The position numbers and the translations under genes are program-made. This document shows, one piece after another, positions 9,475-58,723 of a stretch of 64,000 nucleotides of DNA (position 1 is its first letter; every line of letters begins with the position of its first letter). The stretch spans positions 37,200,001 to 37,264,000 of the forward strand of contig OZ287754.1 in the NCBI GenBank assembly GCA_965649765.1. The letters are read 5' to 3'. The notes beneath the pieces were generated by a model. The model was given only the letters and a program-made list of their open reading frames with translations, was not told the origin of the DNA and did not search any database. Source of the DNA: Bispira polyomma (taxonomy: Eukaryota).

Positions 9475-9480
9475 CTGTTA

Positions 9481-18047: not shown

Positions 18048-20312
18048 ATGGCAAAGTTAGGTAGTGATTTAGTTGTGTTGTCTGCAAACTGCCAAGGCCT
18101 ACGTACTCTAGAGAAAAGAAATGATGTAATAAGTTTTTTCAAGGACACAAATGCTGGATTAGTTTGTCTTCAAGACACCCATTTACTTGAAAAGGACATA
18201 ACACAGGTGAAAACAGTTTGTTACTTAAATGGGAGGAAATCAAACTCTCGAGGCGTAGCTATGTTATTGACAATTTTAAACATGAAGTTATATCTGTAAA
18301 TAGAGACACTGAAGGCAACTACCTGCAACTAATAATACAATTACATACTATGGTTGTAAATTTAATGACGATTTATGCCCCAAATATAGACAGTCCATAT
18401 TTTTTTAGAGAAATACAAAAATTAGTCACCGATAGCAACTCCGACTACAGCATAATATGTGGACACTTCAATCTAGTTTTAGATCCGATTAAAGATTCAT
18501 ACAATTATACAAATGTTAACAATCCTAAAGCACGAGAAACAGTTCGATTTAATGCGATTTAATAGATGTCTTTAGAACTTTCTATCCAGAAAAACAGAGA
18601 TATACTTAGAGAAGAAAAAATTCAATAAAACAAGCGAGATTAGACTACTTTCTAATATCAAGGCCACTGAGTGACATAATAAATACTTCAGAAATAAGAC
18701 CAAGCTAAAGGTCCGATCATTTAATGATAGAATTAAGAATTAGTCTCACAAAATTTGTAATTGGAAAAGGTATATGGAAATTCAACAACAGTCTTTTGAG
18801 CAACAACGATTACTTGACACTAATAAACATAATTATTGAAGAAAAAATAAAATATGCAGTCCCTGTCTATGACATACAATTTTTAGAGAAATTTGAAAAT
18901 GACGATATTCATTTTGTAATAGACGATGATCTATTCCTAGAAGTATTGTATCTTAGAATTTGAGGGGAAACTATAAAGTTTGCATCAAAAATAAAGAAAA
19001 AAATGAACTCTGTAGAAGAAAATTTAAAAAAAGATATAGAAACGATAGAAAGGAATGAACATTTAAATAATCATTACGAACAAATAGTAAATGATAAAAA
19101 ACAAAAACTAGAACAACTTAGGTCCCATAAGGTGAGAGGTTTTATGATTAGGTCCCGCCTGACATGGCTTCAAGAAGACAAAAAACCTACAAAATTATTT
19201 TGTAATTTAGAGAATAAAAATTTTGTTGAAAAAACAATAAGGAAATTACAGTTAAACAAGGGTTCTATTGTAACAGAACAGGAAGATATTTTAGCAAGTA
19301 TTAAGGATTATTATACCAATCTATTTAAAAAAAGAAAGAAGTCACAGAAATACTTGTATATAAAGGATTTGTTTGGGGGAAATATATATAAACAAGTCAA
19401 TAATGATCTAGAATTAGGCAAGCTCGTAGAAGTACATGAAGTAAGTGCCGCCTTAAAGTTGATGAAAAACAATAAGACACAAGGGATTGATGGGATATAT
19501 GCAGACTTTCTGACCAAAATTGAAATTATATGTGACCAGAGCAACTAATAGTTGTTTCAACAAAGCTCAACTTTCAACTTCTCTCTGTCAAAGTATTATA
19601 ACTTGTCTACCAAAAGGTTCAAAAGACTGAACACTTTTGAAAAATTAGAGGCCAATTTCAATTTTATGTGTGACCTACAAGTTGGCTTCATCAGTTATAG
19701 CAAACAGAATTAAACCTCATTTAAATAAAATTATATTGAGATCCCAAACAGGCTTTCTAGCTGGAAGAAATATAGCTGAAAGCACTAGATTAATTTATAA
19801 TATAATGCACTATGCAGAATCTGAAGATATAGATGGACTTTTAATGCTTATAGATTTTGAAAAGGCGTTTGATTCGATTTCATGGTCATTTCTATATCAA
19901 ACTTTAACTTTCTTTGGATTCGATGAGCATTTACTAAGGTGGATTAAACTATTTAATAATAATATTTCAGCTAGGGTCCAACAGTGTGGTTTTTTATCTG
20001 ATGCAATTCCAATCGAACGAAGTTGTAGACAAGAAGATCCAATATCTCCATATTTATTTATAATTGCAGCGGAAATATTAAGACAATTAATAAAAATAAG
20101 TCCAGAAATTGAAGGTATAAAAATTGAAGGCATAGAACATAGGCTAACACAGTTTGCAGACGACACAACAATCATACTTGATGGCAGTTTAGGTTCTTTG
20201 CAGGCAACTCTCAATGTAATAGAAATTGATTGAGCTTTATCAGGTCTTAAGATTAACACTGATAAGACTAAATTAGTGTGGATAGGTAAAAAAAGAGGTT
20301 CAAAGGAGAAGT
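18048..20312 (+). pseudogene. Tx1/L1-clade LINE ORF2, 5' part (APE endonuclease + RT)
   Basis: SANCQGL, CLQDTH, SRGVA, IYAPN, GHFN, RLDYFL, SDH, WKFNNSLL, QTGF..GR, IDFEKAFD, QFADDTT, KTKLVWIG; several frameshifts and stops. Confidence 0.92.
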
Positions 20313-20780
20313 GGGGGCTAGGGTGTTGACAGCACCAGGTTTCAGTCCAAAGAAAGTGACACTAATTAATAGTTCCCCCCTTTTAGCCATTTTTCTTTCT
20401 GGCAAGCTAATGATTGCCTGTCTCCCTTGAGAGACTGCTAACTTGCCACCATGGCTTTCTTACTATATAAACCCCTGTTTCTTTGGCATAAAGCATCTAA
20501 ATTCTCTTGTTACTGGAAGTGCTGTCAAAAATCACGGTCACATTTGGGGCCTTCTACTTCAAATAACTCGAGCAATTACCAGATTTTGGGAGAATATCAT
20601 GTGTGATTTTATGGAAAAGATTTTATGTGTTTTAGTGATTTTATGAAAAACATTTCATGTGTTTTAGTTTATTTTAAGTGTCAGCAAGTTTAAAATATTA
20701 CTGTATCACAGTCGAAAGGAGTCGTCTTGTGTGTCATATAAAGTGTTGTGTTACATAAAGTGTTATGTTTAGAAAGTAAA

Positions 20781-22144
20781 ATGGCTAGGCCAAGTGCCTA
20801 TTGTAAAAAGTGCGGGAAAAATCACCCAAGACCTGTGGGAAGGCATTGTGTATTAAATATTACCGAAAATGTGGAATCGCCAGTGTGTGATAAAGAATCA
20901 CAGCCAGCCAGAGCTAGAGGACGTCCTCGGAATGTGCCTGATTCGCCAACGCGCTCTGATTCGTCTGGAGCTCAGAAGCTGGATTTCATAATCTCCAAGC
21001 TACAGAAGTTGGAAGATCAGGTAAACCACGTGCAGAGTGAGCAGCGAAGCAGAAGCAGAGTCGAACGCGTCCTGGATGCTGACCGTCGTCGATCCCCCGA
21101 GAGGTCCGGGTATGTTCCCGACAGCAGTCGAACCCGCCGACGTTCCCCTATCTGGTCCCCTGAGAAAGCCGGTTATGTTCCCGATACCAGTCGATCTCGC
21201 AGATGATCCCCTGTTCGAGCAGGGTATGACCTTGCTAATGACGACCCACTGATGGGAGACAAGGACTGGGATCGTTTGATGGATGACATAGATTCTGAGC
21301 GTCGAGGAGGCCTTCCTGTTTTTAACAGATGACCTGAGCGAGCTGCTGCTGAACGGGGCCGTCATGATGATACCAGACCAGCTGCTGACCGAGGACACTA
21401 TAACTGTCAAGATTCAGAAGATCTGCTGCTGCCGAGCCAGCAATTTCTTCGCCAGAACGATCACATACAACGTCAAGTTGACGCACGCCTCAAACACCAT
21501 AAAAACAGGCTGGCCTCCTCACCAGAAGAACATGGTAAGAAACTTAAATCAGGTTTATTGCGTACTGGGGAGCATACTATCAAAGAATATATAAATTGGC
21601 CACATGAGCATTGTTATGTAAATTCAAGTAGAAAGTACCCAGCGTATGATGAACTTACTCCACTCATGTGGTTTCAAGGTTATTTACAGTGTATGTTAGA
21701 AGAAACAGAAAGTGTAGTTAGAACTAATATGATGCAGTACGGGGTACAGTTGATGCGGGATGCCATGGAAACATCATGGTACACTGCCAAAAGTGCACAT
21801 TGTGTATTACTATTAGAGATGGAAAGGGGGAAAGTTGATTGGCATGATATGAGATCTGTTCACGAAATAAGGGCTTGTCTAACACAACGCACTATAAAAG
21901 AAAATAGTCGCGAATCTGCCTCAACTAATTCAGCAAAAAACTCTAAAACAATAAAACTGTACCCTGCACTGCATATAATAAAGGTACTTGTACTCAAACT
22001 AGTGACCATGCATTTGCTGGCATGATTTTAAAACATGGATGTGTAAAGTGTTTTAGGCTTACTGAGAAATTTCATGCACATAGGGAAGTCAATTGCAAGG
22101 GGCCGGAAAACGGGAAAAGCCTCCAGCAGGCATCAAAAGCATAG
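20781..22144 (+). pseudogene. gag-like ORF of E2
   Basis: MARPSAYCKKCGKNHPRPVGRHC, RRSP repeats, KKLKSG..INWPHE..YDELT..W..G, C-terminal Cys/His cluster. Two TGA stops (probably from CGA) and one frameshift. Confidence 0.85.
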
Positions 22145-24283
22145 AAATTAAAACAAGGACTTTTTGGAACACTGCTTGGCTGGAGACTCTTGAAAAAACT
22201 AGAAAATCAAAACTATTTAATGTAAAAGGTAAAATTGTGGGAGATGTGTGTGAGAATATAAAAATCCCGCCCTCCACAGCCCCTACAATTGAAACTAAAA
22301 CAAATAAAACCACACCTCAAGGTAAACAAGTTAGTGTTCAGAAAGTATGTGACATCATTCAGCAAGTCTATTCTCCTCCCCCACAAAGGGGGGATATTGC
22401 TGTGCCTTCTGTGTCCCCACAGTCTATGGTAAATAGCCATTCTTCTTCTGTCAAACATAATGACATTCAGGGCAGCCCCCTTTCAGAACCTATAATTGAC
22501 ATATGTGTAAAGCGGGAATTACATAATACCAATGAGCGACCAAAATTCCACAAGTCTAAAGACAATTTTGGATTTATATGCTTATACAAACCAGTATACA
22601 CTGTTCCAAAAAACTAGGAATAATATTCATTACAAAACTTTGGAACAATGGGCCATTTTAGCCAATAATATGGTTAACCAAGTCGGTGGCCCTAATTATA
22701 TGGGGGCAAGACTCCCAGTCCCGTCAGAGTTAAATATCCCAGCCTGGAGGAATTTATTACAAAAAGACCATGATGTGTTGTTGCCAGAATATCTGGAATT
22801 TGGTTTTCCTCTTTGTATAGAAAAACAAGGTTTTACATTTAATAATGTTGTGAGAAACCATGACTCTGCTCTCCAACACCAAAGTAGTGTAGACGAATAT
22901 TTTGTAACTGAACCCCTCCACAAGGCTATTGCTGGCCCATTTCACACCCCTCCTTTTCAGAATATCCACTTTTCACCAGTAATGACACGTCCAAAAAGTG
23001 ACAATACCCGTCGAATTATTGTAGACTTGTCATGGCCACATGATCAATCATCTGTTAACAATTCTGTGTTAGACGCTGTTTATGATGATCACCCATTTTG
23101 TTTGACTCTACCTAATATTGACTGGTTAGTAGACAGAATTAATGAGCTAGGTGATAATTGCTTATTATATAAAATTGATTTATCTAGGGTGTTTAGGAAC
23201 TTAAGGATAGATCATGCTGATTACAATTATGCAGCCTTAACATGGAAAAATAAAACATATATTGATTTGTCTGTAATGATGGGATATAAACATGGCACGG
23301 CTCTTTGTGAAAAGGTGACTGATTCAATACGTAGACTCATGAGAGATAAGGATTATCTTATCTACAACTACATCGACGACATAGTAGCAGCAGATACTCC
23401 TGAAAAAGCTAACGTCTCTTTTAAAACTTTGTACTCATTAATCGAACATTTGGGTCTTCCCATAAACCCCAAAAAAGTGGAAACCCCATCTGAAACTATA
23501 ACATGTATGGGGATAATTATTTATGCCCGCACCGGAATATTAAAAATCCCTCAACAAAAAATGTCAGACATTCAAGAAATGTGTGAACAATGGAAAGGCA
23601 AAACTAATTGTACACGCAGGCAACTTCAATCATTACTAGGAAAGCTCTTGTATATACACCGGTGTGTAAAGCCCGCACGTCTGTTTTTAAATAGAATGTT
23701 GGCACTACTGCGTTCATCACATCCTAAAACAAATATCGCTCTCAATGAAGACTTCAGGCGTGACCTTAATTGGTTTAGAGTTTTTACTCAGTCATTCAAC
23801 AGTGTAGTTGAAATGCACACAAAAACAACACCCAATTATGAATTCTTTGTTGACACGTCTCTCACTGCGTGGGGGCTGTGTTCAAAAACAATGTATATAC
23901 CTCCACTTTTCCTGACAACACACCTCCAGCATTCACTATTGTTCACCATGAGATGTGGAACATTTTAGTGGCACTAAGAAAATGGGGTCATTTATGTCAA
24001 AACTCAGTGTTGCAAATATGGTGTGATAACATAGCCGTAGTATTTACACTCAACACAGTAAAATAAAGGATGACGCCCTCTCATTGATTGCTAGAGCCAT
24101 ATAGCTTGAGGTCGCTATTTGTAACATCAAGATGCACTTGAAACATGTACCTGGAGTAAAAAATGTAATGGCGGACTGCCTCTCCTGTATGTTTTCACAA
24201 AAACAATTCCCACCAACACTGTTGCAGCACTTGTCGCAAAAATGTTGGTGGCCTATAACAAAGAATGATTTCACCCTGAGTAA
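22105..24283 (+). pseudogene. pol (linker + RT + RNase H) of E2
   Basis: The 478-aa ORF 22532-23968 has EFGFPL, RRIIVDLSWP, KIDLSR, YIDD and LQSLLGKL; RNase H HHEMWNI..CDN follows in a shifted frame. Confidence 0.92.
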
Positions 24284-24304
24284 TGATATTTAATGATTTT
24301 CCAG

Positions 24305-25263
24305 GTACTACCCAAGAAAAAACTCTATATTCTGCTGCATTACAAAGGTTACCACAAGCCTTTACAGAAAAGACACAGCAATCCTACCTTCAATGCATCA
24401 GGCTGTACTTAGCCTTAGCTATTGCTCTACAAGTGCCTGACTATACCACAATCAATTACTTACTTGTATTTTTGGAATACCTTGTGCAGCAAGGCTTAAA
24501 ACCCCCCTCTATTCAAAATTATCTGTCCTCTATAAAATTTTATTTTCAATTATGGGGTGTTTCCACTACTCCGCTCCACCACCCCCATATCAGACTGTTT
24601 TTAAAGTCATTATCTCTTACCACCCCTTATAACCCAAAATTAAAGTCAATCATCTCAATTTCTATTCTCACCTCTATAATTACTCAGTGTGAGCATTTTA
24701 AAAATGCACATGTATTTCAAGCTTTATTTCTCACTGCCTTTTTCGGCTTCTTTAGATTATCAAATCTAGTTCCCTCTTCTTCCTCCACTATAAACGCACA
24801 CAGGCACCTTACAGTGCAAGATTTAGTATGGGGACATCCTGGAGTGCATATTATTATCAGATGGGCGAAAAACCTCCAACGTTACAACCAATACCATGTA
24901 GTTCAACTCCCCTTTATTAAAAACTCATTACTGTGTCCTGTTACTGCATTACGGGTAATGATAAAACTGAATCAGCCAAAACTCTCTGCTCCATTGTTTT
25001 CTATTGACAATGTTCCGCTTACTGCTTACAAAGTTAGAAGCGTTCTCAGACAAATTATAATAAAACTCCAACTAAATCCGTCAGCATTCACCTTTCATGC
25101 TTTCCGTCGGTTGGGTGCGACTTTCGCATTCGAAAACAATATTGACCTCCAATCCATCATGGTACATGGGGGTTGGAGGTCTCAAGCCGTCTGGGCTTAC
25201 TTACAGTCAACCCCAAATGCGGCTGCCACAGTAGCTACATCAATACAACAACTCTTACAATAA
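24305..25263 (+). CDS. tyrosine recombinase of E2 (open frame; predicted second exon of a Gag-N/YR fusion)
   Basis: FFGFFRLSN, HAFRR, HGGW..VWAY give the complete R-H-R-H/W-Y set; preceded by the acceptor ttttccag at 24304. Confidence 0.88.
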
Positions 25264-25872
25264 GTACGCCAAGTCTGGGCTCTTTGGGGCAATGTTTGTT
25301 TATATATATATATACATACTTTTACATTGTAACGATAATCTTATTTTATGTTTATACTTATACACTTTACTATAATTATTCTTGTCATTTCAGCCAGTCG
25401 GCTTGAGGTAAACATAGCTTATATAAGCATAGGTTTCAGTAATTTGTATGCAACATTTTAGTTAAGCTTTTACCACTTGCTAAACTTAAGTATTAAAGTG
25501 GATTTATCAGGATATACTGATGTCTTAATAACAATAATGAACTCTTATTAATAATGCTAATGCCTGATTGTAATGTTTGTAACTAATTGCAATTAACTAA
25601 AGTTAAGTGCATGATTTGTATCATGTAGCAATAAGACTAAGTGCAATTAACCACAGTGAAGTTGTGCATGAATTAACTGTGCTATATTTTATATATTTTT
25701 GCTACAAAACTTGTAAATATGTAGTGTTAACAAATACTAATGATAGTTATATGTTTTAGATTAATAAATGCCCAAAGAGTGCCTTTTATTGACTTGGTGT
25801 TCACTTATCACTTGCCCTTCAGTTCTCACCCTTACTCTGGTAAACATATAGTTCTGGAACAAACAAGGACTG

Positions 25873-27740
25873 TAAATATATCAGCAGAATTAGACTGGGG
25901 AGCCACAGAGTTGTATTTCTTAGGCATTGACTTTTCAGAAAATTTCAGAAATGAATTTTTCCAAGGAACTGCTTAAAATTAAATCTGTTACAAAATCATG
26001 GAAAAATAGATATCTGACCCCAATCGGCAAAATTACTGTTATTAAAACCCTGTTAATTCTGCAGTTAAACCACTTATTGGTTTCCATTCTAATATCACAA
26101 AAAATGATGGATACAATAAACAAAACCCTTTTTGAATTTTTGTGGGATAGAAAACCTGATAAAGTCAAGAGAGAAACAATCTATACAATTTGCAATCAGG
26201 GGGGTCTAAGTATGATAAATATTTGTAACTTTGAAAAATCATTAAAGTTGGGTTGGATGAAAAAAATAGCTAATATCACATATGACACTTCTCCTTGGTG
26301 TCAAGTCTTATTAGAGATATCCGGTAATTTGGATAAAGTTTTCACGAGAGGTGCTGAATGGTGCAAAATAATACTGTCTAAAATGTCAAACCCATTTTGG
26401 AAACATGTTTTTTCTATATGGATAGAATTTTGTGGAGTACAAAAGTTGCATACAAATTTAGATGTCATGCAATCTTGTTTGTGGTTCAATAGACAAGTGT
26501 CAGATGCAATTCTATTTTTTCTGGATTGGGAAAAGAATCGAATACAGATTGTAGGTGATATTGTGAAACCACAGGCAAACCAATGAGTTTTATAGAAATA
26601 CAGAGAAAATATAACATAAAAGATGACTGCCTAAATTACTATCAAATAAGATCAGTTCCTTTGGCATTTATAAAAAACATAGGATAGATGAAGTATTTAT
26701 TGTTACAAAGCCACATCAACCAAAACACATTTAAATTCTCTTTGAACCACAACAGGGTAGCCGAAGGTTTTATCAAATTATGAATAATAATAACTCGCTT
26801 AATAAACCACAGTGTGAAATAAAATGGAATAATAGACTACATTTAAGTTTTGGTTCTGAAGAATAGAAAAATGTGTATAAAATATGCTTTCACACAGTAT
26901 CTGACAACTACGTCAAGTGGTTTCAATATAAGATACTATATAATATTTTTGGAACAAGACGTCGCTTGTATCAAATTAAATTGATAGATACTGATAAGTG
27001 CAACCTATGTGGAAAAGACCCTTAAACAATAATTCATCTTCTGTCAAAATGTGAAAAGTTAAATATTTTGTGGTCTGCTATAAGTCAGTGGATTAACCAT
27101 AAAATCAATATTGACGTTAAATTGACCGAGTTGGAAAAATATTGGGATATCAAATTCTAAATGAACATTTTTGGCCTTTAAATTATATCCTATTAATAGC
27201 TCGAAAATGCATTTTTCTGTGTGCAACAAAAAAGTATCAGTTAATTTTTTAGATTTTACAAAAAGAACTACAAACAAGGTACTTGGAAGAAGAACATTTA
27301 GCCAAACTTAATGGCTCAAGTGTAAGATTTGACCGGATATGGTGTAACTGGAAGCATATTGTATTAAACTGCTAAGATAATTAACAGGAAAAAGTGGTAC
27401 TATCTAGTAAAAAGAAAAATCAATGTTATTATAATTGGTTAAAGTTTGATGCTAGCTATTACAATATGCTTCATAAAAAAAGAAAAAAAACAACATAATA
27501 AAAAGTCATGTGGATTTTTACCTTTCCCAGAAGAGATAAATATTCTTTTTTTTCCCAATATGTCAATAGTTTGTAATATAATATAATTGTATGCAAATGT
27601 AACAAAAGTAGTCCAATACTACTATTTTATTATGGTTAAATGTACTTATGTTTCGAGGTGATACCTAACTGCCGGGGTAAATCACCAGTATATTGTAAGT
27701 GGCAGAATAGGTATAATAAAAAAAAAACAATAAAAAAACA
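25873..27740 (+). mobile_element. Tx1/L1-clade LINE ORF2 3' part and 3' UTR with A-rich tail
   Basis: FLGIDF, W..RYLTPIGKITVIK, LWDRKPDKVKR, GGL.M, C-terminal CNLC..TIIHLL..C zinc motif near 27000, A-rich tail at 27714-27740. Confidence 0.88.
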
Positions 27741-31525: not shown

Positions 31526-31555
31526 CACTGCTTAGTGTAGTCTGCTTGTGGTTTT

Positions 31556-38011: not shown

Positions 38012-38600
38012 GTTTTGCATACAAAGTATATGTAAACGCTCTGTAATTATTGGCAGTTTTTCTAATTCGTACCCTAATGGGACATTGTACCATTTCCCTT
38101 TTTTTTAATAATCTATTGATAAAAATAAAATGGATGTAAGTTTTAAATCTGGAAATAGAACAATTTCATTCAAAAAAGGGTGTAAAGACCGAAATTAATC
38201 TATTGTAGTGTCAATAAATATTTTTAGGGACCTTAAATACTTGTGGTTGTATTGTACTTTGGGTGTCAGGACATCAGGACATCACTTAGTATAGGTCCCT
38301 ATGGAGAAGTGGTCTGTATAACGAGGACGGTTCTATCACAGGCTTTGACTGTGAGTATATAGGGTTTTGAAAGCTAACGCCCCAGCGTTGGCGGCCTCAG
38401 TTCTGGGGTACCAGGCTGTTCACTACTATGGGATGGATGGGCGAGTATATAAGCCACCCCCCTTTCGAATTCTCCCACCTTTTACCGTTTGTCAGCAGAG
38501 CACTAGGAAAATTCAAATACTGTTTGGGTGACAAAGAGAGTGTTTTATGTTTTATACTGTTACATGGTTTTAGTATTTTAATTCAATATACACTCAAGTC

Positions 38601-39647
38601 ATGCCAGGTAAAAAGATTGTGTTTTGTCCGAAATGTTTGCAAAAACATGAGAGACCTGTTGGAAGAAACTGTTCGGTTAATATGCCTGATATCTCAGGTG
38701 AGGGAGTGGAGGTTGACTCTGGCTCCCATGAGGACTTGCTGGTTCATCCGAACGAGGCTGTATCTAGCGCTATACTACAGCAGTTGCAATCGCTTAGCCA
38801 GGTAGTCGAGAGGATGGATCGGCGAGTCCAGCAGACAGAGGCAGCGTTAGCAGCCAACCTCACCAGTAGTAAGGCAAGTACCGTTCCTTCTAGCATCACT
38901 CCTAGTGTTTCTAAAGAGCTAGTCTCTGCTGACGAAGGTAAAAGCCCACCTACTGGCCCAGATACTGTCGTTCTGAGTGTCGAATTTTTGAGTCAGAACG
39001 CTCAGATTCAGTTGCAAGTCGAACAGAGGTTAAAGGACCTTTGGTCCCTTAATGAAAATCCCTCAGGTAAAATTAAGTCTCAGAAAACTGGGGGGAACGA
39101 GGTTATTGTAAAAAAGGCCATCGAATGGCCCCAGAATTATGTGCTGACCGGCAGTTCGAAGACTCGCCCTAGTTACGACGACTTAACCCTTGTTCAATGG
39201 GTTTGTGGCTTCACCCAGATCGCTCATGAGGAGAAGTCGACTGAAATTAAGAATGCTATGCTAGATTACATGAGTGGCCTCATGGAGGACGTCCAAGACT
39301 TTTCGTGGGAGGTGGCGAAGGCCTGCCACGCGGTAGTCCTAACCAATATGGAAATGGACAAGCTCGGGTGGTTGGATGTTGAGAAGGTCAACCGGATTCG
39401 TAGGGCACACGCCCAACATCATGTAGGTGTGTCAAGATCTATTCATGGGGCGAATGGCCATGCTGTTAGCACTGGCAGTAGTAAAACTAGTCAGAAAAAG
39501 TTGACACCTTGCAGGTTCTTCCAAGAAGGAACTTGCAAGTTCTCTAGCTCACATAATACAGGGGGGCAAATGTATAGGCATAGTTGTGAAACTTGTGGGG
39601 GTAGTCATAAGACCAGTATGTGTAGCAAAAAAGAGGCAAAAAACTGA
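38601..39647 (+). CDS. Gag-like protein of E3 (348 aa, intact)
   Basis: CPKCLQKHERPVGRNC, coiled coil, KIKSQ..IEWPQNYV..YDDLT..W..GF, RIRRAHAQ, CRFFQ..C..H..HSCETC..H..C. Confidence 0.88.
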   Translation: MPGKKIVFCPKCLQKHERPVGRNCSVNMPDISGEGVEVDSGSHEDLLVHPNEAVSSAILQQLQSLSQVVERMDRRVQQTEAALAANLTSSKASTVPSSITPSVSKELVSADEGKSPPTGPDTVVLSVEFLSQNAQIQLQVEQRLKDLWSLNENPSGKIKSQKTGGNEVIVKKAIEWPQNYVLTGSSKTRPSYDDLTLVQWVCGFTQIAHEEKSTEIKNAMLDYMSGLMEDVQDFSWEVAKACHAVVLTNMEMDKLGWLDVEKVNRIRRAHAQHHVGVSRSIHGANGHAVSTGSSKTSQKKLTPCRFFQEGTCKFSSSHNTGGQMYRHSCETCGGSHKTSMCSKKEAKN

Positions 39648-42131
39648 GGGGCCACTGCTTGGATGCAGTGGATAAAAAGGTAAAAAATTTTAAGGTTGTA
39701 AATAGAACTGTCTATGGCACAGGCTTCAAAGATTTTCATTTGTTTGAAAAAATGTGTATCAGAAAATGTGTAAATATATGAAGGTCAAAAGGCCTAATGT
39801 TAATTATAGTGATGCTTTAAAAAGTACTGCTAGTACCAGAAAATCAATGTTTGTATGTTTGGGGTTGACAGGTTTAGCTCTGGAAAGGTGACACAAAAGG
39901 GCAGGTTTTGCCAACCACAAAAGGTTGGCAGAGCTGAACTCAAGAATAATGTTGACACCTCTGCTGCCATATCTATTCAAAGGTTTGAAAAGTTAACACC
40001 TGTAATTGGCACCTCCATTCAAGTGGCTAAGAAGGTGACACCTATTGTGAAGCAACCCCCATGCACAAAGCAACAGGGCATGGAGACAAAGGTGTTAGAA
40101 AATCGATTCAGAGGGGGGGGGGCGAAAAGAGCCACGTCAATGAAGCTAACTGTGGCCTTCAGCTTAACAACCGGTTTTCCGCATTGGCACAGATACCTGT
40201 GGAGGACAATGCAGTCATTGTGAGGGTCGTTCGCTCTAGTAACACGCCTGGTAACAATGGGGGCTTTGCAAAGCACCAAGAGACAAGTACTTGCGCAGAA
40301 CGTGTCAATGAAAATGTTGAAACCTCTGATAAGTATTCGTGTGCTTTAAAGCACAAGAAAAATAAAAGCTGCAGAAGGCGGCCTCGAATCAAACACACAA
40401 AAAATGGCAGGACCAGAGTAGTCATGCTTATGGATTTATTCCTCTCTCGGCTTTGGGCAGTGAGATTGCCGACCATGGTGGGGGAGGGCACAAACTATCC
40501 ATATTACAAATGCATAAGAAACTACGTCTTGATGGCAGGCATAATTATACTGGCCTCCAGATTCCTGTCCATTCTCAATTAAAAGCTGAAACATGGGGAA
40601 AGTATTTACAAACCTACTGGGATTGGCAAGTGCCTCTCCTTATAAAATACAGATTCCCTCTTGATGTGTGTCGAAAAATTTGTACCAAGTCGAATGAAAC
40701 TAACCATAAGTTAGCAGAGGAATTTCCTCAACATGTAGACGCCTATATGAAGGAAAAATGTGGCTTTGGGGCAATGCTTGGTCCTTTTGACACTCCACCA
40801 ATTCAGAATTTGCATTGTTCCCCTTTAATGACCAGACATAAACCCAACTCGATTAACAGACGTGTGATTGTGGATTTGAGTTGGCCTCAGGGGGCTTCAG
40901 TAAATGCAGGTGCTTCTCCGACTTCGTATTTGGGTGTCGATTTTTTACTGTCTTACCCTTCCATTGATCATCTTACTACTGAAGTGTCTAAATTGGGTAA
41001 GGGTTGTCAGATATTTAAAATAGACATGAGTAGGGCGTTTTGCCATGTCCCCATCGACCCTGGTGTCATTGACCTCTTAGGGTTGAAGTGGAAATCTTAC
41101 TATGTCGATAAATCGCCGCCGTTCGGTTATTTGAATGGCAGTACTATTTTTCAACGAATTTCGGATGCAGTGCGTTTCATAATGCACTCAGAAAATCATA
41201 ACGCCACAATTATATCGACGATTTTTTTATGCGTATCACTTCCCAGCAAAATTCAGAAAACGTTCATAAGACTGCAAGAATTGCTTGCTGAACTGGGTCT
41301 TACAGTTAGCCAGAAAAAATTGGTTCCACCCAGCACTGAGGTAGTCTGCTTAGGCATAATAATTGACACAGTCAAATGCACAACTTCTATCGCATCTGAA
41401 AAAATGACAGAAATTCAGAGCAAGTGCAGGGATTGGGCTTCAAAAAACTATTGTACCAAGAGAGAACTACAGTCTTTACTGGGCCTTTTGCTATATATCT
41501 CTAAATGTATTAAATATGCTCGGGTTTTTTTGAATAGAATGTTGGAACTGCTACGAGATAATCACAGTAAAAACAAAATTGTAATAAGTGATGCATTCAG
41601 ACGTGATTTAATTTGGTTTAGAACTTTTGCAGAGCAGTTCAATGGTGTTTCCTTTTTCTTACATAAACCCATATCAGGCGAGATACAATTGGATGCCTGC
41701 CTCACAGGCATTGGGGGATTTATGGAAATCAAGTATACCAAATTAAAGTTCCTACATGTATGATAGAGTATAATATAGCTTCTCTTAAAATGTTGAACAT
41801 TTTGGTAGCAATGAAGTTATGGGTCCAAAAATGGAAGGGTCAGAGAATTTTAGTAAGATGTGACAATAAGGCAGTAGTCAGTGTCTTACAGACAGGCCGT
41901 ACTAGAGACCCCATATTGGCCACTTATACCAGAAACATATACATGTTAGCCAGTAAGTTTGACATTGAAATTGTTGTAGTCCATATTCTAGGTAGAGAAA
42001 ATCAAGTGGCTGACTTACTTTCCAGATGGGCCGAGACAGAAAGTAACCACCTATTATAAAATCAACTGGCTGGACCAATTCAATGGCTTCCTGCCCCTGA
42101 AAATTTACTTCATGTGAACACTCTTATATAG
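39638..42131 (+). pseudogene. pol (linker + RT + RNase H) of E3, frameshifted
   Basis: RRVIVDLSWP, KIDMSRAF, LQSLLG, LDAC..GIGG, CDN, NQVADLLSRW; the YIDD region is frameshifted near 41215. Confidence 0.9.
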
Positions 42132-42155
42132 CAGGTTTTAGTTTTTCTTTTCCAG

Positions 42156-43141
42156 GCACTCACCCTGTGGGTCTGGCTCTGATGAGACGGGCTTGTGATA
42201 GGCTGAACTCAGCTCTTACTCCTGCCACTAATAAAGCATATGACAGAATGTTCCGACAGTTCCTAGCTTTTGGAGCCTTTATGTCATGGCCTTCCCACAA
42301 GGTGACTATGTTGCAAAATTTAGCATATTTAGAGTTTCTAAATTTCAATGGTGTTTCGGCCTCTCAGGTAGTAAATCACATCTTGGCTGTGAAGGCAAAA
42401 TGTGTTATGTTTCATATAGATGTTCAAGTATTTTCTGATCAGAGAATTTCTTATTTCACTAAAGCCTTGGCTATGCATAGACCTTTACAAGCGAAATTGA
42501 AGTCAAGTTTTGATGTGCACTTGCTTAGGGCTCTCATTAGTAAATGTGATAGTACTTACATAGGCCAAATTTTGAAGGCTGTTTATTTGACAAGCTTTTT
42601 AACATTTTTGCGTTTGTCCAATCTGTGTCCTCATTCAATGGGGTCATACTCTCCTCTTAAGCAATTAGCTAGAGCTGATGTTTTGTTTAAGCCAGGGTAT
42701 GCAGTCATCATGGGTAAATGGTCTAAGACGCTGCAGAGAAATGATACAGTTCGGTTGCTAACCATCCCAAGTATACAAAATTCAATTCTTTGTCCTGTTC
42801 AGGCCTTGAAAGCTGTGTTAACCACCTCACCTAAAGGAAAAAGTCTCCCATTATTTCAGTTTAAACTCCATGGCTCGTGGGTTCCACTAACAGACACACG
42901 GGTGCGAAGGCACCTCAAAAATGTACTATCCTTACTTGGTACTCAATACTCTGGCTTGACCTTTCATGCCTTGCGACGTTCAGGTGCCACATTTGCGTTT
43001 AACAATAATGTCAAGATTCAGGATATTCAAAAACATGGCACCTGGACGTCGGATTGCGTGTGGCGTTACATCTCAGACTCTGCTGATGCTGGTACTCAAG
43101 TTGCAGATTCCTTTAAAGATGTCCTACAAAACACCTACTAG
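42156..43141 (+). CDS. tyrosine recombinase of E3 (intact; predicted second exon)
   Basis: FLRLSN, HALRRSG, HGTWTSDCVWRY; strong acceptor tttttcttttccag at 42155. Confidence 0.9.
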
Positions 43142-44852
43142 TTTGGGGCTTGGTGGTCTAACTTAAATATTTAGGTTTAAGATCTGTCAAAATAACACAA
43201 AATATTATACCCTTTTTTGGGCATAAGGTCCCCCCCCTTCATTATATTAGTACATATTGTACTCAAGTATCTAAAGTTCGACTTAAAACCCTAAGTCAAA
43301 CTTTAGACTAGCATAAATTTAAAGTTTAATCGCTTAAGTTTGCACTTAAATTAAAATTTCTACCAAACTTAAACTCTTAACCTTAAACTCAAATCCTCTA
43401 AGTTTGGACTCAAAGTCAACTTTGGCAAACTTATACTCTTAAACTCATTGTACGTAAGGTCACCTAAACGTAAGCTTTGTATAAGCTCAAGGCCTTAAAC
43501 TCACTTGAGTTAAGGGGCCCTTATGCCCACAACAGTATTACGTATTCTACAAAGAAACTGTATATAAAAAATATGCTAGTAGTAGAAATCATATATATAT
43601 AATAAAGTATTTAACCGCAATCTTTTCTTACTATGAGTTGTTGGTTAAATATCTATCATTTGCCCACACACCGAGGAACTGATATTGAACACACCCTAAC
43701 ACCAGAATACCCTTAAAGGTCTGATTAAATGGCCATTGCTGCAATTTGTACAACACTCCATTTTGTTCTAGAAGGCTGATCCTAGTGTTTAAAGGACACA
43801 GACATAGTGAGACCCTGGCTGGAAAGTTTACACCTGCGGACTCATTGATTACATACACACACGGAAGGAATCAACTGACAAATGACTAAATGTCCCCACT
43901 CCATCAAGGTTTACTCTACTTAATATGTTAAGCCAAATGAACAATGTCACCTAAGAAAAGCAACTACATAAGGAACAGGGTAATTAAGCAACTAAAGACA
44001 ATTCCAGAGAATACATTCTATCAAATATAAAGGCTGGTCAACCTGCAATATCAGTAGATGATTTTGTTTTTTTTAATTAAAGATAGACAATCCCAAAATA
44101 AAAATAAGGTTTAAGACCATACTGATCCTAGCTAAGAACTTGGCATTACTTAGAACCTAAAACAGTGTAGTGTTAATTAGAGTAATAAACTATACATACA
44201 GACGGTATTAGTTCTTAGAGACAGGGAATCTCTTGTAATAAACTCTATATATTATCAACAACGACTGAGACACAATGGTCCCAAACTCAGCTGCAGATAT
44301 AGCTCCACTGCTTACAGCCCACGAAAAACTGTGATAAATTCTTTAAGAAACAAGAGTCATCTTTCTTTACCACAGCAAGGAGGTAGTATTGAATTACTAC
44401 TGTAAATAAAACAGCAACAAGATATGGAAATAAATATTTATCCTTAGCTGTTATCAATAAAATGTATTGTTACAAACATGTACAGCAAATGTCAATTTAG
44501 TGGCTACATAGGGCAAGTACCTTTGTGTCAGGGAATGCAGTCTTTAATCTCTAAATGTGAGATCCTGCAAATAAGGTGTCATATTTAGGATATAAATATA
44601 GCTTTTGTATTTTCTGGTGAAGGCCACAGGAACCAAGTCCATGTAATATACATTTACAGGTCAATGAAACATGAATTGATTCAACAAAATTAGAGGTTAA
44701 TTTTATTTGTTGCTTAATGAGGGGAATAAAATGTTGTCTTTAGTTTAAAAAGGAAATGTAAACATTTTCTTTCACATTCAAGATATGAATGTTTAAATTT
44801 AATATTATCTACTGACAAATTTGTTGTTAAGTTGATATTTATAAATTACATT

Positions 44853-50100: not shown

Positions 50101-52075
50101 TACCCCATCCCAACTTACAACTGTATCTATGTTTTTTTGAACATCTCAATTGGCTGATTGATATTTTTTTATTCATTTTTTTTGTATACAAATTCAAACA
50201 AATACATGTAACAATACAATTGCAGTTACACAAAACAGTAAGACAATGTACAATACAATAATATACAATTACATACAAAAGTGTCTATTTGTTCAAGATA
50301 TTTCCAAAATATTGTTTAAATTGTTTCATAACATCCCTTGAGTTATTGAGGTCACAGAAAAGTTGAACTTTACTTTTCTTAATTAGCATATATTAAAAAA
50401 GAGATTATTTAGTTTGTTTGCATTTTCTTGTTTATAAACCATTTTCCAACTAAGAGTAAATAGTTTATTAAAAGTAATGTTTCATCTTGAGTACAAACCA
50501 TATATAATAAAACCTCACATACTCTAAATCTGAATTTTAAATCCAGGTTGTTTGGCTAATTGATTTGGTTGTTTGCTTTAGAAAACGCCTCACATAATCG
50601 TTAAAATGTATAGTACAGTACAATGACACAATTTTTCTAGCATCCCAGGGGGTAGTGGATCCCATGACTTTAAAAAGTTTAATAACTAATCAAATATGAC
50701 CAGAGCCAAAACAGTTACAAATCGAGATTTCAGGATATTAAAAAACTCTTGTGTTTCCATTTCCAGGAACACCAACATACTATAACGGCCCACATACTGA
50801 TGTCACCGAGCCCCCTTAATACTCACCCCCTCCCCTTCCTTGTCCTATACACCAGCCTTTCCCCCTTCCCACTTGACTCTGTGTGATATTCAATAAAAAG
50901 ATGACAGATGACTTGCTCAGATAAAGCTCCTGGAACTGATAAGAGTACAGAGTTAGCTACCATAAGTCAGACCGCCAGTCACAATGGACTGCTACTTAGC
51001 AGTTCTCTCCACCCCTGGCATACCTCTGTGGTTCTTGTAGTCTGGGACTTGTACAATCCTCAAGCTAATGTTAAGTCCTAAATATGCCCAGCATAGGTCA
51101 CAATACATAGAGTTAGAATAGCTGGCTTTTAAACTCTGACCTGAAGTAAATAAACCTCAAGGTTATGCTACAAGAATTACGTGGAGATTAAAATTTTATT
51201 AGAGATGAATATATAAAACCAATAGGGGTATAAGTACTCTAACTTAATTTAACTCAGAGGTCTAAAGTTAGCCAATCAAAATCGAGAATTGAAGTGACGT
51301 GGGTTTTTAGACCTTAACCTACTAAATGCTGTTTTGAGGAGAGTTAATTGTATATGTATTTCTTGCTATTGGTGCTCTCAGTATCAGAATTACAATGCAT
51401 GCATCAATGAAAGAGACAAAAGAGTTGACTTAGTTTTTGAGTATTTAAGAAAAATCAGAATATTTTCCTAAATAAGTGGAAATATTTCCGGAACTAATAA
51501 GGACACTGAATCCATGTAAAGGTCACCCAGATATTACAGTTTTTCTTTTATTAACTTTTCAGTCAAGGGCCCAGACATTTATGTACACTTAATAATACAA
51601 TTACAAGTCGGTGATTTATTAGGATCTGTGACAAAAATGCCATCGGGGGCAAATAATTCATCTGAAGCATGAATTGTGTTGGTGTTGGTGCAAAAGCCAC
51701 AAATTAACCACTAAATGATGCCATAACTAATGTTGTCACTGAAGCATTTGCCACTGCGGTCTACTGCTTGACATGTTCACTTGCAGAGTACTTGGTTTTG
51801 AACCCAGATAAGGGTAGATAAACAACGGTTCTAAGTTTCTCGGTGGGTGTTCAGATCAGCACTTTAATTTACTAACTCAAACATAACCAGTGATGCGTTT
51901 ATATACTTTATTATTATATATATAATCTAATACTACTGAGGTATATATACAGTTCTTTAACAAGAGTAAAATGAACTCTCTGGGCATAAGGTCACCTTAA
52001 TTTAAATATGTTTATGAGTTTAAGTTTTGACTTTTAGAAAATTGATTAAAGTACAAAGCTAGAGTTTCACTTTAA

Positions 52076-52406
52076 TTATTATTATTACACAACATTTATA
52101 TAGCGCTTTATATATATATATATTACTCTAAAGCGCTTTCTCATGGGCAGCCACTATGGGCGCCGAGGTGCTTGAGGATGACTATTTATCAACGTCCCCA
52201 AGGATCTTTAATCTGCCACTGGAGATATTACTCAGTGACAGAGGCCCGCCATTTTAAGTGGTCAACCGAGCCACTAGGTAAACTTGTGTTCACATCTTGC
52301 CTAAGGATGTTATCCCACCATATTAAACTAGCAGCCAGAACTGGGGATAGAAGCAGGGACCTTCTGATCGTCAGACCAACACCTTAACCACTAGACCATG
52401 GGGGAT
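52076..52406 (-). mobile_element. tRNA-derived SINE with L2-type tail inserted in the E4 3' region
   Basis: Minus strand ATGGTCTAGTGGTTAAGG (A box), then body, then aagcgctttagag..aagcgctatataaat and (TAA)n tail. Confidence 0.8.
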
Positions 52407-53293
52407 CACAAGTGAGGTTTGACTTAAAGTAACCTTAAGTAAAGTTTGACTTAAGATTTGAAGTCGAACTTTACCTGTATGAGTACAATATATACAGTTC
52501 TAATGTAAGGGGACCTAATGCCCACAAAGGTAAAGTGTAAAATGTGAAAAGTAGTGTAAACTGAAAAGATGTTTTATTTATTTTTTTCCAGCTGCCTGCA
52601 AGCTTAGACAGACCACCAAATCCCAATAAGTAGCAGGTGTTTTGTAGTATATCTCTGAAGGAGTTTTCAGGGTTTGAAATATATCGCCAGACTCAATCTG
52701 ACGTCCAGGTGCCCTGGTTTTGGATATCTTGAATTTTGACATTATTATTAAAAGCAAATGTGGCCCCTGAATATTGAGACCCAAGCAATTGCAGGATATT
52801 TTTGAGATGCTTGCGCACACATGTATCAGTAAGAGGTACCCATGAATTTTGTAACTTATACTGGAATAACGGTAGATTTGTCCCCTTAGGTAAGAGCGCT
52901 AATACCCCTTTCAAAACTTGCACAGGACACAAAATTGAAATGGGGATGTTTGGTACTGAGAGAAGTCTAACTGCATCTCTGGATTGCATAGTGTTTGACG
53001 ATCTAATGACTAGTACAGCATACGCTGGCTTGAAAAGTACATCAGATCTGGCTAACTGCTTCAGAAGAGAGAAGGACCCCATTGAATATGGACATAAGTT
53101 TAGAACACAACCTTAGAAACGTAAAGAAACTAGTCAAATAGACAGCCTTGAAGATTTGGCCCATATATGTACTGTCACATTGTTTAACCAGTTTTTTAAG
53201 TAGCTCAATGTTAAACACTGACTTACGTTTGACTTGCAAATGTCTATGCATGGCTAGAGTTTCAGTAAAATAACTGATCCTTTAGTCAGATAA

Positions 53294-53482
53294 TAGACTT
53301 GCTTACAAGTCTTTTCTGTTGGTGAAGACTATATGACTGCATTTTACAAGTTTCTATTCTATTCGAAAGGTGTCAGCACTGGTGTCATTATAACTGCCAG
53401 CTTCTTTATTTAACCCAAATGTACACAGGGTTATAGTTAAAAAATCATAATACCCTCATTGAAGGACCTTGCACAAGGTCTA
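53294..53482. mobile_element. MITE with TAGAC..GTCTA ends and 9-bp TSD, in the E4 YR
   Basis: TSD gtcagataa (53285-53293) / gtcagagaa (53483-53491). Confidence 0.8.
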
Positions 53483-53651
53483 GTCAGAGAAGGGTTTAAC
53501 ATCCAGATGTAAGAGAGTACATTTAGCCTTAACGGCTGACAAGTGGTCAAACTACCTGAGACATGGATAAGCCATTAAAAGTTAAAAATTCTAAACAAGC
53601 TATTAGATGCAACACATTCACCTTGTGGGCTGGCCAACACATAAAGGCCCC

Positions 53652-54099
53652 TAGACCTTTCGCAAGGTCCTTCAATGAGGGAATTATGATTTTTTAACTA
53701 TAACCCTGTGTGGATTGAAAGACCTTGTTCACTCACCTGGAAGTACATGGAATCACGTATCGGTAAAAAAACAATTATGTACTCACAACTTTTTTGACTG
53801 CCAGTCTGTTTAGTATAACTCGCACATCCCATACTGTTTATATGACAACACTAAAATCCATGTGCTTGTTTTTAAAAAACTAAACGGGCTTTAGACCTTG
53901 TGCAATGTCCTTTAATGAGGGCATTATGATTTTTAACTATAACCCTGTGTGGATTGAAGACATTTTATATTTGGGATTAAATAAGGAAGCTGGCAGTTAT
54001 CAAAACACCAGTGCTGACACCTTTTATAGAGTAGAATGAGAACTTGTAAAATGCAGTCTTACAGTGTTTACCAACAGTAAAGATTTGTAAGCAAGTCTA
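53652..54099. mobile_element. second, inverted and partly dimeric copy of the same MITE family, in the E4 YR
   Basis: TSD aaaggcccc (53643-53651) / aaaggccct (54100-54108); the left end is repeated internally at ~53892. Confidence 0.8.
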
Positions 54100-57000
54100 A
54101 AAGGCCCTAAAAGTCAGACTTAATCTAAACATTATGTCATAAGCTTTGTTGGTAGCAGGGGCGAAGGCGGACTGCAGCCTCTCATTTGCACTTTTCATCA
54201 AAGCCAGGTCCACAGGGTGAGTATCTGCAAATAAACTACAAATTGCTATATAAAACTGTTCACATTAAGTAAGTTATTAGAAGTGGACAACCACTGCACA
54301 GGATCAGCTAGGCTAAAAGCAATTGGTGATTACTCTCAGTTTCCTTTCACCTGGACAACAAGTCAACAATTTTGTTCTTCCTGCCTAAAATAAGAATTAC
54401 CATAATTTCAATATCGAATTGACTAGCCAACATGTAAATATTCCTGTTATAGGTTGCCAAGGTCGGATCTCTTGTACGCCCTGTCTGCAAAACGCTGACC
54501 ACTGCCTGGTTATCGCATTTGACCAGAATATCTTTACCTCTTCAGGCTTCCATCCACAATTTAGTGGCCTCCAGAATATTAAGCATTTCAAGATATGTGA
54601 TGTTCATGTCAGCCATCTGGGCCAGAGTGTCTATTTGATATACTTGTTTTGAATAAATCCCCCCATCCCAGTGAGATAGGCATCTAATTCGATTTCCCCA
54701 TTTACAGGTTTATGGGCAAAAAAATGACACACTATTAAACTGGTTAGCAAAGGTTCTAAACCAATTAAGGTCATGTTTAAATTCTTCAGTAATTTTGAAG
54801 CGTTTTTTACTGTGATTATCACGTAAGAATTCCAGCATTCTATTCAAGAATACCCGGGCATATTTTATGCATTTTGACACATACAATAGCAAACCTAACA
54901 AAGTCTGTAACTCTCTTTTTGTACAGTAATTTTTTTTTTTTAATTCATTACATCTACTCTTTATCTATGGCAGCTTTTCAGGCGGAATAGTTGTGGTGCA
55001 GTTTTCTGTATTTATAATAATGCCAAGACAAACGACTTCAGCGCTGGGGGAACTAATTTTTTCTGACTTACAGTTAACCTCAGCTCCTTGAGCAATTCTT
55101 GTAAGCTGAGATAAGTTTTTACTAGGAAGGAAAATGCAAAACAAGTCATCGACATAATTGCGGACGTTATGATTCTCTGACTTTATTATGAAATGTACTG
55201 TGTCCGAAATTCTCTAAAAAATGGGTTTGCCGTTCTGATAAATGAACGGCAGGGACTTATCTATGTAGTATGAGTTCGATTTTAGGCCCAATAAGTCAAT
55301 ATCGCCAGGGTCAATAGGGACGTGACGAAACACCCTGCTGACATTGACCTTGAATATATTGCACCCCTTTCCAAGTTTAAGCACTTCCTTAGTAAGACTG
55401 TCAATGGACGCATATGAAAGTAAAAGTTCGACATCAAGATACGAAGTAGTGGATGCCCCACATTTACTGAAGCGCCTTGAGGCCAACGCAGATCTACAAT
55501 GGCTCGCCTGTTAACTGATTTAGGCTTATGCCTGGTCATAAGTGGAGAACAATGCAAATTTTGAATTGGTGAAGTGTTGAAATGACCGAGTATTGTTCAA
55601 AAAGCACATATTTCTTTCATATATGTGACTATATGATCAGGGATTTCATCTGCCGTACTATGATTTTTTTCATCTGACTCGGTTTTACTTGTTCTAGATA
55701 CATCCAAAGAAAAACCATATTTAATTAGAAGGGGCAACAGCCAGTTCCAATAGCCTTTCAGATAGTTTTTCCATTTGTCTGGATGTAATTGTGAGTGTAC
55801 AAGAATCTGTAGCCTGCTGTGGTTTAATCTACTGAGCTCTGAGTTTTTTGTGCATTTCCAATATGATCAATTTGCTTCCCTCCTCACCCTAATCCACAAT
55901 GTTATGGCCCAGGGCTGAGAGGTGGTAAAGCCATAATTGTTATCACTCTGGTCCTGCCTCTTTTTATATGTCACATTTGAGGCTGCCTTTTGTAACAATC
56001 GTTTTTTATTTCGCTTCTGCTTCAGCGCCCAGGAGTATTTGTCCAAATTTGCCATGTGACCTTCAGATATTTACACATTTTGTTTGTTACACTCTTTTCC
56101 AACAACTGATACTCTCTGAACTCTGAATTGTGGACAGTTCTGGATATTTACACTATTTTTGTCCACAGCATTAACGCAGTGGCCCCTTAGTTTTTTGTTA
56201 CCTTTTTTCAAACACACACTTGTCCTGTGATTTCCATCACATGTCTCAGAAGTATGCTTATAGAGTTGCCCCCCTGTATTGTGGGTACTGGGGTAGTTGA
56301 ATGTTCCTTCTTGGAAGAATCTGCAAGTAACCCGATCCTTTTTATGACTTGTCTTTTTAGAATTCAAACCCCCAGTACGACCATTTGCCCCAAAAGAATT
56401 TTGAGAGACCGAAATGTAGCGTTGAGGGTGTGTCCGATGTATTCTGTCGACTTTGTCCACGTCCAACCAACTTAGTTTGTCCATCTCCATATTTGTGAGG
56501 ACGACGGCATGACAGGCCTTAGCCGCTTCCCAGGAGAATTTCTGTGCATCCTCCATTAGACCCCTATATAATTGAGCATGGTATTTTTAATTTCTAATGA
56601 CTTTTCTTCATGAGGGATGCAAATAAAGCTGCAGACCCACTTCACCAGCGTGAGGTCATCATAACTGGGCCACGTTTTAGCACTGCCTGTCAACAAATAA
56701 TTTTGTGGCCATTCTGCTACTTTCTTAACAACCACATCGTTACCCCCACTTCTCTGAGACTTTAGTTGTTTACCTGCCGAGGGCGTTTCGTTAAGGGTTT
56801 TAAGGTCTCAACCTGAAGCTGAATTTAAGCGTTATCCTTTAAAAATTGGGAACTGGTATAATGGTTTCCTGGCCTGAACTTGAAAAGCTCTTATCCTCGT
56901 CAACAGAACTAGCACTAGCCATGTTATTAGAAAAAAAAGTGTCTGACTAGCCTGTTTGCTGATAAGGTTTCCAGCCAGCGCTGCCTCCGTCTGTTGAACC

Positions 57001-58723
57001 CGTTGATCCATCCTCTTAACGGCCTTACTTAATGACTGACGTTGCTTAAATATAGCTGTGGACACCGCTGCAGCAGGCTGAATCAATGGGTCCTCGTGAC
57101 TCGAGCCAGCACTGTCTTTATCCTCCACAGCATCAATAACAACACTACAATTTCTTCCCACGGGCCGTTCATGCTTTTGAAGGCACTTCGGGAAAAATAG
57201 TATTTTAATTCCAGGCATGATTAGAGCGTGCTACTAAAAAGGTTTAAAAACACATTAACAACAATTTTTAAAACACGACTCTTTGTCCTAAAACTATAAT
57301 TTTTTGAAATACTAGTTGTTTCTGTTGATGAGCGGTTAAAAAGGCGGGAGAATTTGAAGGGGAGGGGGCTTTTATACTCGCCCATCTTTCCCATAATGAT
57401 GCTGAGTTCGTTCACTTACAAAATGGTAACACACTGATCTCCCAACTCACTGGACTCCCAATCCCTAATATGTGTCCTGGAAACATTGCAGTAGATTGGC
57501 TGATGCTTGTCAGAGCAGAAAATCCTAACGAATTGCCCTATTCTGATTTCCTCTTACACTTCCCATTGCGATATAACACAAACTTGTTTAAGCGACGTGA
57601 AATCCAAACTGAATTAAGCCAGAGTGTTAGCTCTGCACCACAGAGGCCCTAGGTATGTTAGGAATCTGGACCTTTTTCAAATAATTAGAAACAAATTTAG
57701 TAACCAACTGATGATTATGGTAACATTGGTTGTTATAGTCGCTCAGGTCAATAACCTTCTCAAAACACAAATGAAATAAGTAAATATTATATGAAGAGCA
57801 TATTTGGATCCACATTCGGGGGTTACAAGCATGAACTGTAACCTACAATTAATTGCCTAAAGGCCCAGGACCAAGATTATTTAGACTTTGAGTGACAGTG
57901 TCAATGTTTGGATGACAGACTTTGAAATGGGTAGCTTGTATCAAACCACCAGCAGGTCCTCTGCCTGTCTCATATGTACCGCTTGCAACCACACCACGTG
58001 CACTATAATCGGCTTCACATTGTTCAGGCCAGCACTATTTAGATAACCAGATACCACAGGAGAAGACGTGAAACTCCAGAAACAGATGTACATGACCTTC
58101 CTACAACATCATTGCTCACATTTTTCCCCGAGACACCACTCCCATTGTCCTGGCCAGTGATGTTTAGGCGACTGGAAACACCCAGCTATGACGTCAGACC
58201 ACCAACAGCAGATACACTTTGAGTGATCCTGGAAACTATACACATAGAGACAGTATTGCAGGCAGTACTGATGCTATATCAACTCACCATGGGATGTGAT
58301 GTCATCGTGACTGTGGCAGTGGTTGTGCTTAACATGTGTGGTAAGGGATAAAATTCGGGCAGTACTCTGCTACCTTGGCATGCAAGCTTTAGAGATATGT
58401 GACATATCTGAGTCCTTAACCTGAATTAAAAAAGAAACAGAGGAACATATATTGACTAATACACATAATTATGTGATAACATTGTGATGAGCAAATGTGG
58501 AAAGGTTCAAGACAAACAAGAATAGTCTTTCAAAGGCTGGTCGGAGACAGGTGAAGGCCACTTTATGTATTAGAGATATTTTAATTATCAGCTATTGTAA
58601 AATACTCCAAAAAGTAGCAAAATGGCCGTTAAGTTTCCACATTGCATAACATGTAGATTTAACTGTCAAGCACTAAGCAGTATGTAGTCAAGTTTATTAA
58701 GTGTAGGTAAGTAATAGTTAAAT

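Follow-up and report, generated by a model that had tools for sequence, protein, structure and literature searches.

The tyrosine recombinase (YR) of the Ngaro-like retrotransposons described here is likely made from a spliced RNA, as a fusion to the N-terminal part of Gag. That is, a single transcript starting in the A repeat would give Gag in its unspliced form, Gag-Pol by -1 ribosomal frameshifting at an A AAA AAC heptamer followed by a hairpin, and, when a phase-1 donor where the Gag coiled coil ends is spliced to a YAG just past the pol stop, a protein of ~480-580 aa in which the Gag N-terminal knuckle and coiled coil are fused to the whole recombinase. A sequence-only reading of the same DNA had proposed a spliced subgenomic RNA for the recombinase; the proposal is supported by the conservation of both acceptor and donor, by missing start codons, and by joined products in two other clades, although that reading had overlooked a frameshift that probably serves pol. 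Such an RNA would account for the conserved splice sites, the absent start codons and the variable offset between the pol and YR frames alike. For Bispira polyomma itself, we infer splicing, use of the coiled-coil donor in the window's clades, the frameshift and the role of the Gag half from sequence. The present analysis contributes naturally joined products, a frameshift signal and a test of splice phase that spans many lineages.

Elements and their class

The window, by which we mean the whole stretch of 64,000 nucleotides analysed (37200001-37264000; the genome searched amounted to 1.035 Gb in 75 contigs), holds five Ngaro-like YR retrotransposons. E3 (38368..43681, + strand) has 18 further copies, each with 91-95% identity over 85% or more of the query, and E4 (51834..57400, - strand) is an old relative of E3 whose YR is interrupted by insertions. 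E2 (20312..25883, + strand) belongs to a second clade and has broken gag and pol, E1 (8015..13439, - strand) belongs to a third clade, and E0 (5871..7979, - strand) is a relic made of RT and YR pieces. Related families include young ones in which the gag, pol and YR frames are all open.

A zinc-finger motif in Gag is typical of Ngaro-like elements, and a Cys/His pattern is visible in Gag here, its match to PF00642 (E 0.005) being under the cut-off. The genes gag, RT/RH and YR lie in this order on the same strand, and no methyltransferase was found after RNase H: pol ends soon after RH, and Pfam searches on two full pol ORFs returned RT and RH families only. Split direct repeats (A1...B1 A2 B2) are present in L010, L018, L022, L043, L122, L124, L132, L138 and L139, while most copies, E3 included, are of the A...B form without the A2-spacer-B2 end, a form that recombination of B1 with B2 would account for. 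The gene order, together with the split direct repeats and the missing methyltransferase, fits Ngaro-like elements; these same features define the group in the available portions of PMC9210276 and PMC3266345, and one derived PAT lineage likewise lacks a methyltransferase according to the accessible part of PMC4157794. A PAT-like assignment (methyltransferase plus split direct repeats) does not fit, there being neither space for a methyltransferase nor a Pfam match, and neither does a DIRS1-like one (inverted terminal repeats and an internal complementary region), self-comparison having returned direct repeats at the element ends. In copies with full A1...B1 A2 B2 ends, the A2-to-B2 spacing is 0.45-1.05 kb, unlike that of described Ngaro-like elements; spacers of this kind were seen in L010 (6985-7931), L016, L122, L124, L132, L138, L139 and L043, and those of L010 and L016 contain no long ORF but strong acceptor-like tracts, downstream of a TATA-bearing A2.

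Predicted exons and intron of E3

In E3 (all features on the + strand), the A repeat (38368..38520) carries a TATATAA word at 38446-38452 that may act as promoter. The gag ORF (38601..39647, 348 aa) encodes an N-terminal Cys/His knuckle, a coiled-coil-like segment and a C-terminal CCCH-like finger. Predicted coding exon 1 (38601..39066, 155 codons plus 1 nt) ends at the phase-1 donor CAG/GTAAAA (39067..39068), and the predicted intron (39067..42155, 3089 nt) would contain the C-terminal part of gag and the whole of pol. A probable -1 frameshift site (39638..39671), composed of the slippery heptamer A AAA AAC (39638-39644), the gag stop and a 7-bp hairpin (39652-39671), leads into pol (RT and RNase H, 39629..42131), which lacks a methyltransferase, is broken by frameshifts in this copy and stops 24 nt upstream of the acceptor. 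A polypyrimidine tract with a phase-1 CAG acceptor (42136..42155) precedes the YR exon (42156..43141), and the B repeat (43153..43681) follows it. The R-K-H-R-W-Y set of the YR is invariant in the alignment. Nearly the whole YR exon shares its fold, together with the catalytic residues, with Cre and XerC/D: the predicted structure aligns at model residues 10-305 with Cre 24-323 (Z 19.6, rmsd 3.8, 277 aligned), with the differences that identity to Cre is 14% and that the N-terminus here would come from Gag.

The splice sites named in the sequence-only reading are where it had placed them, that is, donors CAG/GTAAAA at 39067 (E3), ATG/GTAAGA at 21535 (E2), CAG/GTAATG at 12305 (E1, - strand) and CAG/GTAAAC at 56773 (E4, - strand), and acceptor AGs at 42155 (E3), 24304 (E2), 54225 (E4, - strand), 9475 (E1, - strand) and 6606 (E0, - strand, as TTTCAG). 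All of these are phase 1 as it had claimed; the E3 join keeps an open frame of 483 aa, and the E2 join is in phase, the E2 gag being broken upstream of it. These families have a GT donor and a polypyrimidine-YAG acceptor of matching phase, which are the signals of a U2-type spliceosomal intron.

The acceptor and the start of the recombinase

The conservation of GT and AG relative to synonymous sites, which had been suggested as a check, is complete in the E3 family (donor GT in 24/24 and CAG in 30/30 copies) but has little power at a divergence of 5.9% at four-fold sites, and families were therefore compared instead. For the acceptor, we used 37 representatives from genome and metagenome contigs, with 11 same-family or deleted copies excluded beforehand and one mis-anchored representative (L095) dropped afterwards (n = 36), and took the highest-scoring AG between 45 and 120 nt upstream of the conserved YR tyrosine, ignoring the frame. 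A phase-1 YAG stands 25-29 codons before this tyrosine in 36/36 representatives, and the top frame-blind acceptor is phase 1 in 34/36 compared to 57/131 of the other AGs in the same stretches, which bears out the earlier view that chance is an unlikely cause. These rows span seven separate lineages with DNA in a YR tree built from the sequences of this analysis alone, and collapse to 13 clusters at 60% YR identity, every one of which has the phase-1 site (0.43^13 = 2e-5). Among ENA homologues that reach far enough upstream, 26/26 have a [STPALVI]-[GDEAV] pair at the acceptor distance (a permissive pattern with no null), and these pairs (such as S-G, T-G, P-G, V-G and T-D) mostly end a run rich in F/L/I/Y/C/V, as would be expected if the peptide were a read-through of a T-rich phase-1 acceptor tract.

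The acceptor proposed for E1 fared less well than the others. There is an in-phase AG at 9475, but the tract upstream of it is A-rich, and in 5/5 E1-type families the frame-blind score prefers a T-rich, phase-1 YAG 21 nt downstream, at 9454. The AG of 9454 is kept in 21/23 pattern-matched E1-type loci (24 scanned) and was lost from the window copy. Hence the E1 acceptor is probably 9454, with 9475 as a weaker in-phase alternative.

The claim that the YR has no conserved ATG stands on other families rather than on the window, where each of E1-E4 has an ATG in frame no more than about 10 codons from the acceptor, and the window alone therefore does not exclude a YR start codon. In 13/36 representatives, the first in-frame Met lies at or after Tyr-1, and in L163, which has many near-identical copies, it lies +71 codons after the tyrosine. 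The residues that such a late start would skip form confidently predicted helices (H4-18, H23-42) inside the Cre-aligned stretch. For 27 rows a pol stop was located within 60 nt, and in these the offset between the pol and YR frames is 0, +1 and +2 in 9, 11 and 7 rows, respectively, and no single readthrough or frameshift fits this spread. Alternatively, the YR might be self-started, from an internal promoter or by re-initiation past the pol stop, with the T-rich tract as a mere spacer. The remaining 23/36 representatives, like the four main window elements, do have an upstream in-frame ATG, and the end of pol (an Ile codon plus the stop) forms a TATA-like word in several families; yet the ATGs lie anywhere between -295 and +127 relative to the tyrosine, the TATA-like word is missing from L124, L136 and L138, and a start of the YR's own leaves the fixed-phase YAG, the donor and the joins at the AG unexplained. 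We consider this alternative very improbable, and favor translation from a spliced RNA, in which the Gag half probably provides the start codon.

The donor in gag

In each of the 25 representatives whose gag was usable, the GTs in the 70 nt after the anchor were scored with a weight matrix, ignoring the frame, and the best one was taken. The best local donor after the Gag coiled coil is phase 1 in 23/25, and the two exceptions, L063 and L130, have a phase-1 site that is outscored locally. When all 38-79 GTs in about 1 kb are ranked, the phase-1 coiled-coil donor comes first or second in 19/25; E1-type donors are weak (rank 3-5), and the weak exon side of E2-type donors is offset by a +5G. The donor had been described as lying just before a K(I/L)KS motif, and it does adjoin the motif, albeit loosely, with the Gly 1 to 7 codons before it in the window's clades. 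The residues flanking the donor vary (SGK, QGK, SGT, TGS, TGI, AGT, HGK, KGT) whereas G/GTA is kept; among other gag Gly codons, GGT accounts for 110/315 and GGT followed by A for 32/315. Consistent with these nucleotides, the residue after the Gly in ENA Gag homologues is K, R, M, T, N or S, the set with A-starting codons, in 77/78 (background 0.435), and in 78/78 the residue before it can be specified by a codon ending in A (K, R, Q, S, T, A or P; 4 homologues had no Gly and 10 were unparsed).

It is also conceivable that the acceptor is real but is served mainly by another donor, whether upstream in gag, so that the knuckle alone is kept, or in a non-coding leader, which would give a YR with little or no Gag. 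E3 has three further phase-1 donors upstream (38608, 38698 and 38938), one of which scores higher than the coiled-coil site, and in L121, L122 and L043, too, there are phase-1 sites further upstream that score better. These upstream donors are not common to families, however, and the coiled-coil donor is in the top four in 16/17; a non-coding leader provides no start for the 13/36 representatives without an ATG, and the natural joins described below retain 140-170 aa of Gag, which argues against a YR with little Gag. We therefore judge the use of another main donor unlikely, and take the coiled-coil donor as the predicted site.

Naturally joined copies

At the sequence level, joined products occur naturally in two distant clades, neither of which is the window's own. 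L153 and L154, from the metagenome scan, have a Gag-type N-terminus joined to YR in phase 1 at the AG that is seen unspliced, behind a T-rich tract, in L157, which is 96% identical to them in YR; L153/L154 is a chimera that mixes two families, and viral contigs yielded no unspliced parent for the 5' exon of L153. P0248 follows L147-type Gag through FSAK and continues with L147-type YR from the Glu after the acceptor (FSAK/E), and both its donor and its acceptor position had been predicted before P0248 was seen. Similarly, P0257 exits Gag at T-G into YR, at the point where the unspliced relatives P0245, P0255 and P0260 run on as T-G-E-G into zinc-finger Gag, and so do four NCBI entries from two species of Porites (P0247, P0266-P0268), which are gene models. 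ENA calls read through acceptor tracts and are therefore probably calls of unspliced ORFs; on this reading, P0248 and P0257 would be uninterrupted in DNA and hence retro-copied spliced RNA. Spliced RNA, which would retain both ends, may sometimes be reverse-transcribed and re-inserted as a joined copy. The donor of the P0248 clade comes after P-N-[YF] and that of the window type ~20 residues before, meaning that the donors do not form one alignment column.

For the window's own clades, no joined copy was found among 165 loci with E3 or E2 probes, no window-type Gag fused to YR among 417 proteins, and no Gag-YR fusion by protein searches with the YR, a Gag profile or the Gag N-terminal region. 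In three DNA read sets with even single-copy cover, the predicted joint was not among the 15 joints listed (217 more were unlisted), a result that has no bearing on splicing. L129 and L159-L161 were rejected as joined copies, their long open frames having arisen where a deletion or a lost stop lets pol read through into YR, and so was L162, which has no join.

Under a third explanation, protein conservation and AT-rich codon use produce the splice signals as a by-product, and the joined copies stem from chance deletions or from faulty annotation. Gly-Lys does yield G/GTAA wherever its Gly codon is GGT, as 35% of those in gag are, and deletions do arise near the acceptor: L129 breaks 4 nt short of it, and L118 and L034 break inside the upstream tract. 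On the other hand, in most families the acceptor tract lies outside coding sequence, the nucleotides at the donor are constant while the flanking residues vary, and P0248 and L153/L154 break in frame at the predicted AG. We regard this explanation as extremely improbable, and hence favor spliced RNA as the source of the joined copies as well.

A few other features of these sequences can be reported. In P0246 (a single example), RNase H is fused at its end, in frame, with the YR acceptor at R-F-H-T, and the pol ends of L147 and L157 have G/GCAA at the R-F-H-T point, possibly a GC donor for a Pol-YR form. L153 also carries, upstream of the Gag-N-YR join (928-1536), an ORF for a GDSL/SGNH hydrolase (PF13472, E 4e-12), and its contig ends in an AAT repeat; no hydrolase ORF was found in the window's clades.

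A probable frameshift signal between gag and pol

In E3 and the L135-L139 clades, gag ends with A AAA AAC, a hairpin of 7-9 bp follows after 7-8 nt, and pol overlaps in the -1 frame. Eight families picked for the heptamer (E3, L121, L123, L124, L135, L136, L138 and L139) have the full arrangement of a -1 signal, that is, an X XXY YYZ heptamer, a 5-9 nt spacer, a stem and pol in the -1 frame. When aligned, their stem is 95% paired, with two pairs showing two-sided (compensated) changes, and 1/500 shuffles scored as high. Pol is thus probably made by -1 frameshifting in E3 and the L135-L139 clades; a slippery heptamer with a hairpin was looked for, and not seen, in the E2 clade and the metagenome clades.

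Relation to known systems and implications

Orthoretroviral pol is made by a -1 frameshift. Retroviral env and foamy pol splicing likewise reaches a downstream gene by removing gag/pol as an intron, with the unspliced RNA being genomic, and the earlier comparison with these viruses holds in this respect. The foamy part of the comparison is loose, however, since foamy Pol mRNA contains no Gag sequence (accessible part of PMC3705302), whereas ~150-250 aa of Gag would stay fused here and the spliced gene is the integrase. Conserved alternative splicing also sets protein ratios in Ty1/Copia elements (in the available portion of PMC5580714), but the spliced RNA there gives Gag alone as opposed to the Gag-recombinase fusion predicted here. 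Ngaro-like elements share the order gag, RT/RH, YR, the split direct repeats and the absence of a methyltransferase with the elements studied here, but the accessible parts of PMC3783388 and PMC9210276 speak of their ORFs only in terms of overlap, a shared frame or a frameshift, compared to the gag-to-YR splice and -1 signal that we predict.

We found no published account of Gag-YR splicing in a survey that covered the core Ngaro literature in part. Spliceosomal introns in some YR elements are reportedly mentioned in the abstract of Goodwin and Poulter 2004 (Ngaro). The available portions of papers that treat or mention YR elements make no mention of a gag-to-YR splice (PMC7192593, PMC9341512, PMC9210276, PMC6681497, PMC8547959, PMC4157794, PMC3266345, PMC3783388, PMC12477816, PMC3212892 and PMC2632668), nor is the translation of the third ORF of YR retrotransposons addressed in the accessible parts of the literature surveyed.

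Predicted nucleotide-level junctions for YR expression are now available. If the model is true, YR ORFs annotated from the first ATG are mis-started, host splicing governs the protein ratios of the element, and the real integrase bears a Gag domain, which is relevant to packaging and target choice; more speculatively, the Gag half may tether the recombinase to Gag assemblies. It is tempting to extend the model further, to Gag-to-YR splicing as a general, ancestral and previously unreported integrase route of animal Ngaro-like elements that parallels retroviruses, in which the retained coiled coil loads the recombinase into the particle and spliced RNAs seed non-autonomous Gag-N-YR copies; we offer this broader version tentatively, as a possibility that we rate at somewhat below even chances.

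Other features of the locus

The five YR elements of the window lie inside 52 kb (5871-57400), and elsewhere YR elements adjoin or nest in one another (L126, L128 and L165) or are inserted in tandem-repeat arrays that make up both flanks (L121 and L033). LINE-like ORF2 pieces flank E2 on both sides (18191-20233 and 25924-26586), as if E2 had inserted into a LINE. Nested inverted-repeat insertions (53294-54099) disrupt the YR of E4, and a second inverted pair (48765-59178) flanks E4 at a distance. A SINE- or MITE-like element of 250 bp (window 35735-35984) shows extreme depth in DNA runs and is also found within the B repeat of L124. Finally, the window encodes a 437-aa neuropeptide precursor (30218-31531, - strand) with many SSFVRIG-KR repeats, which we take to be FVRIamide-like by name.
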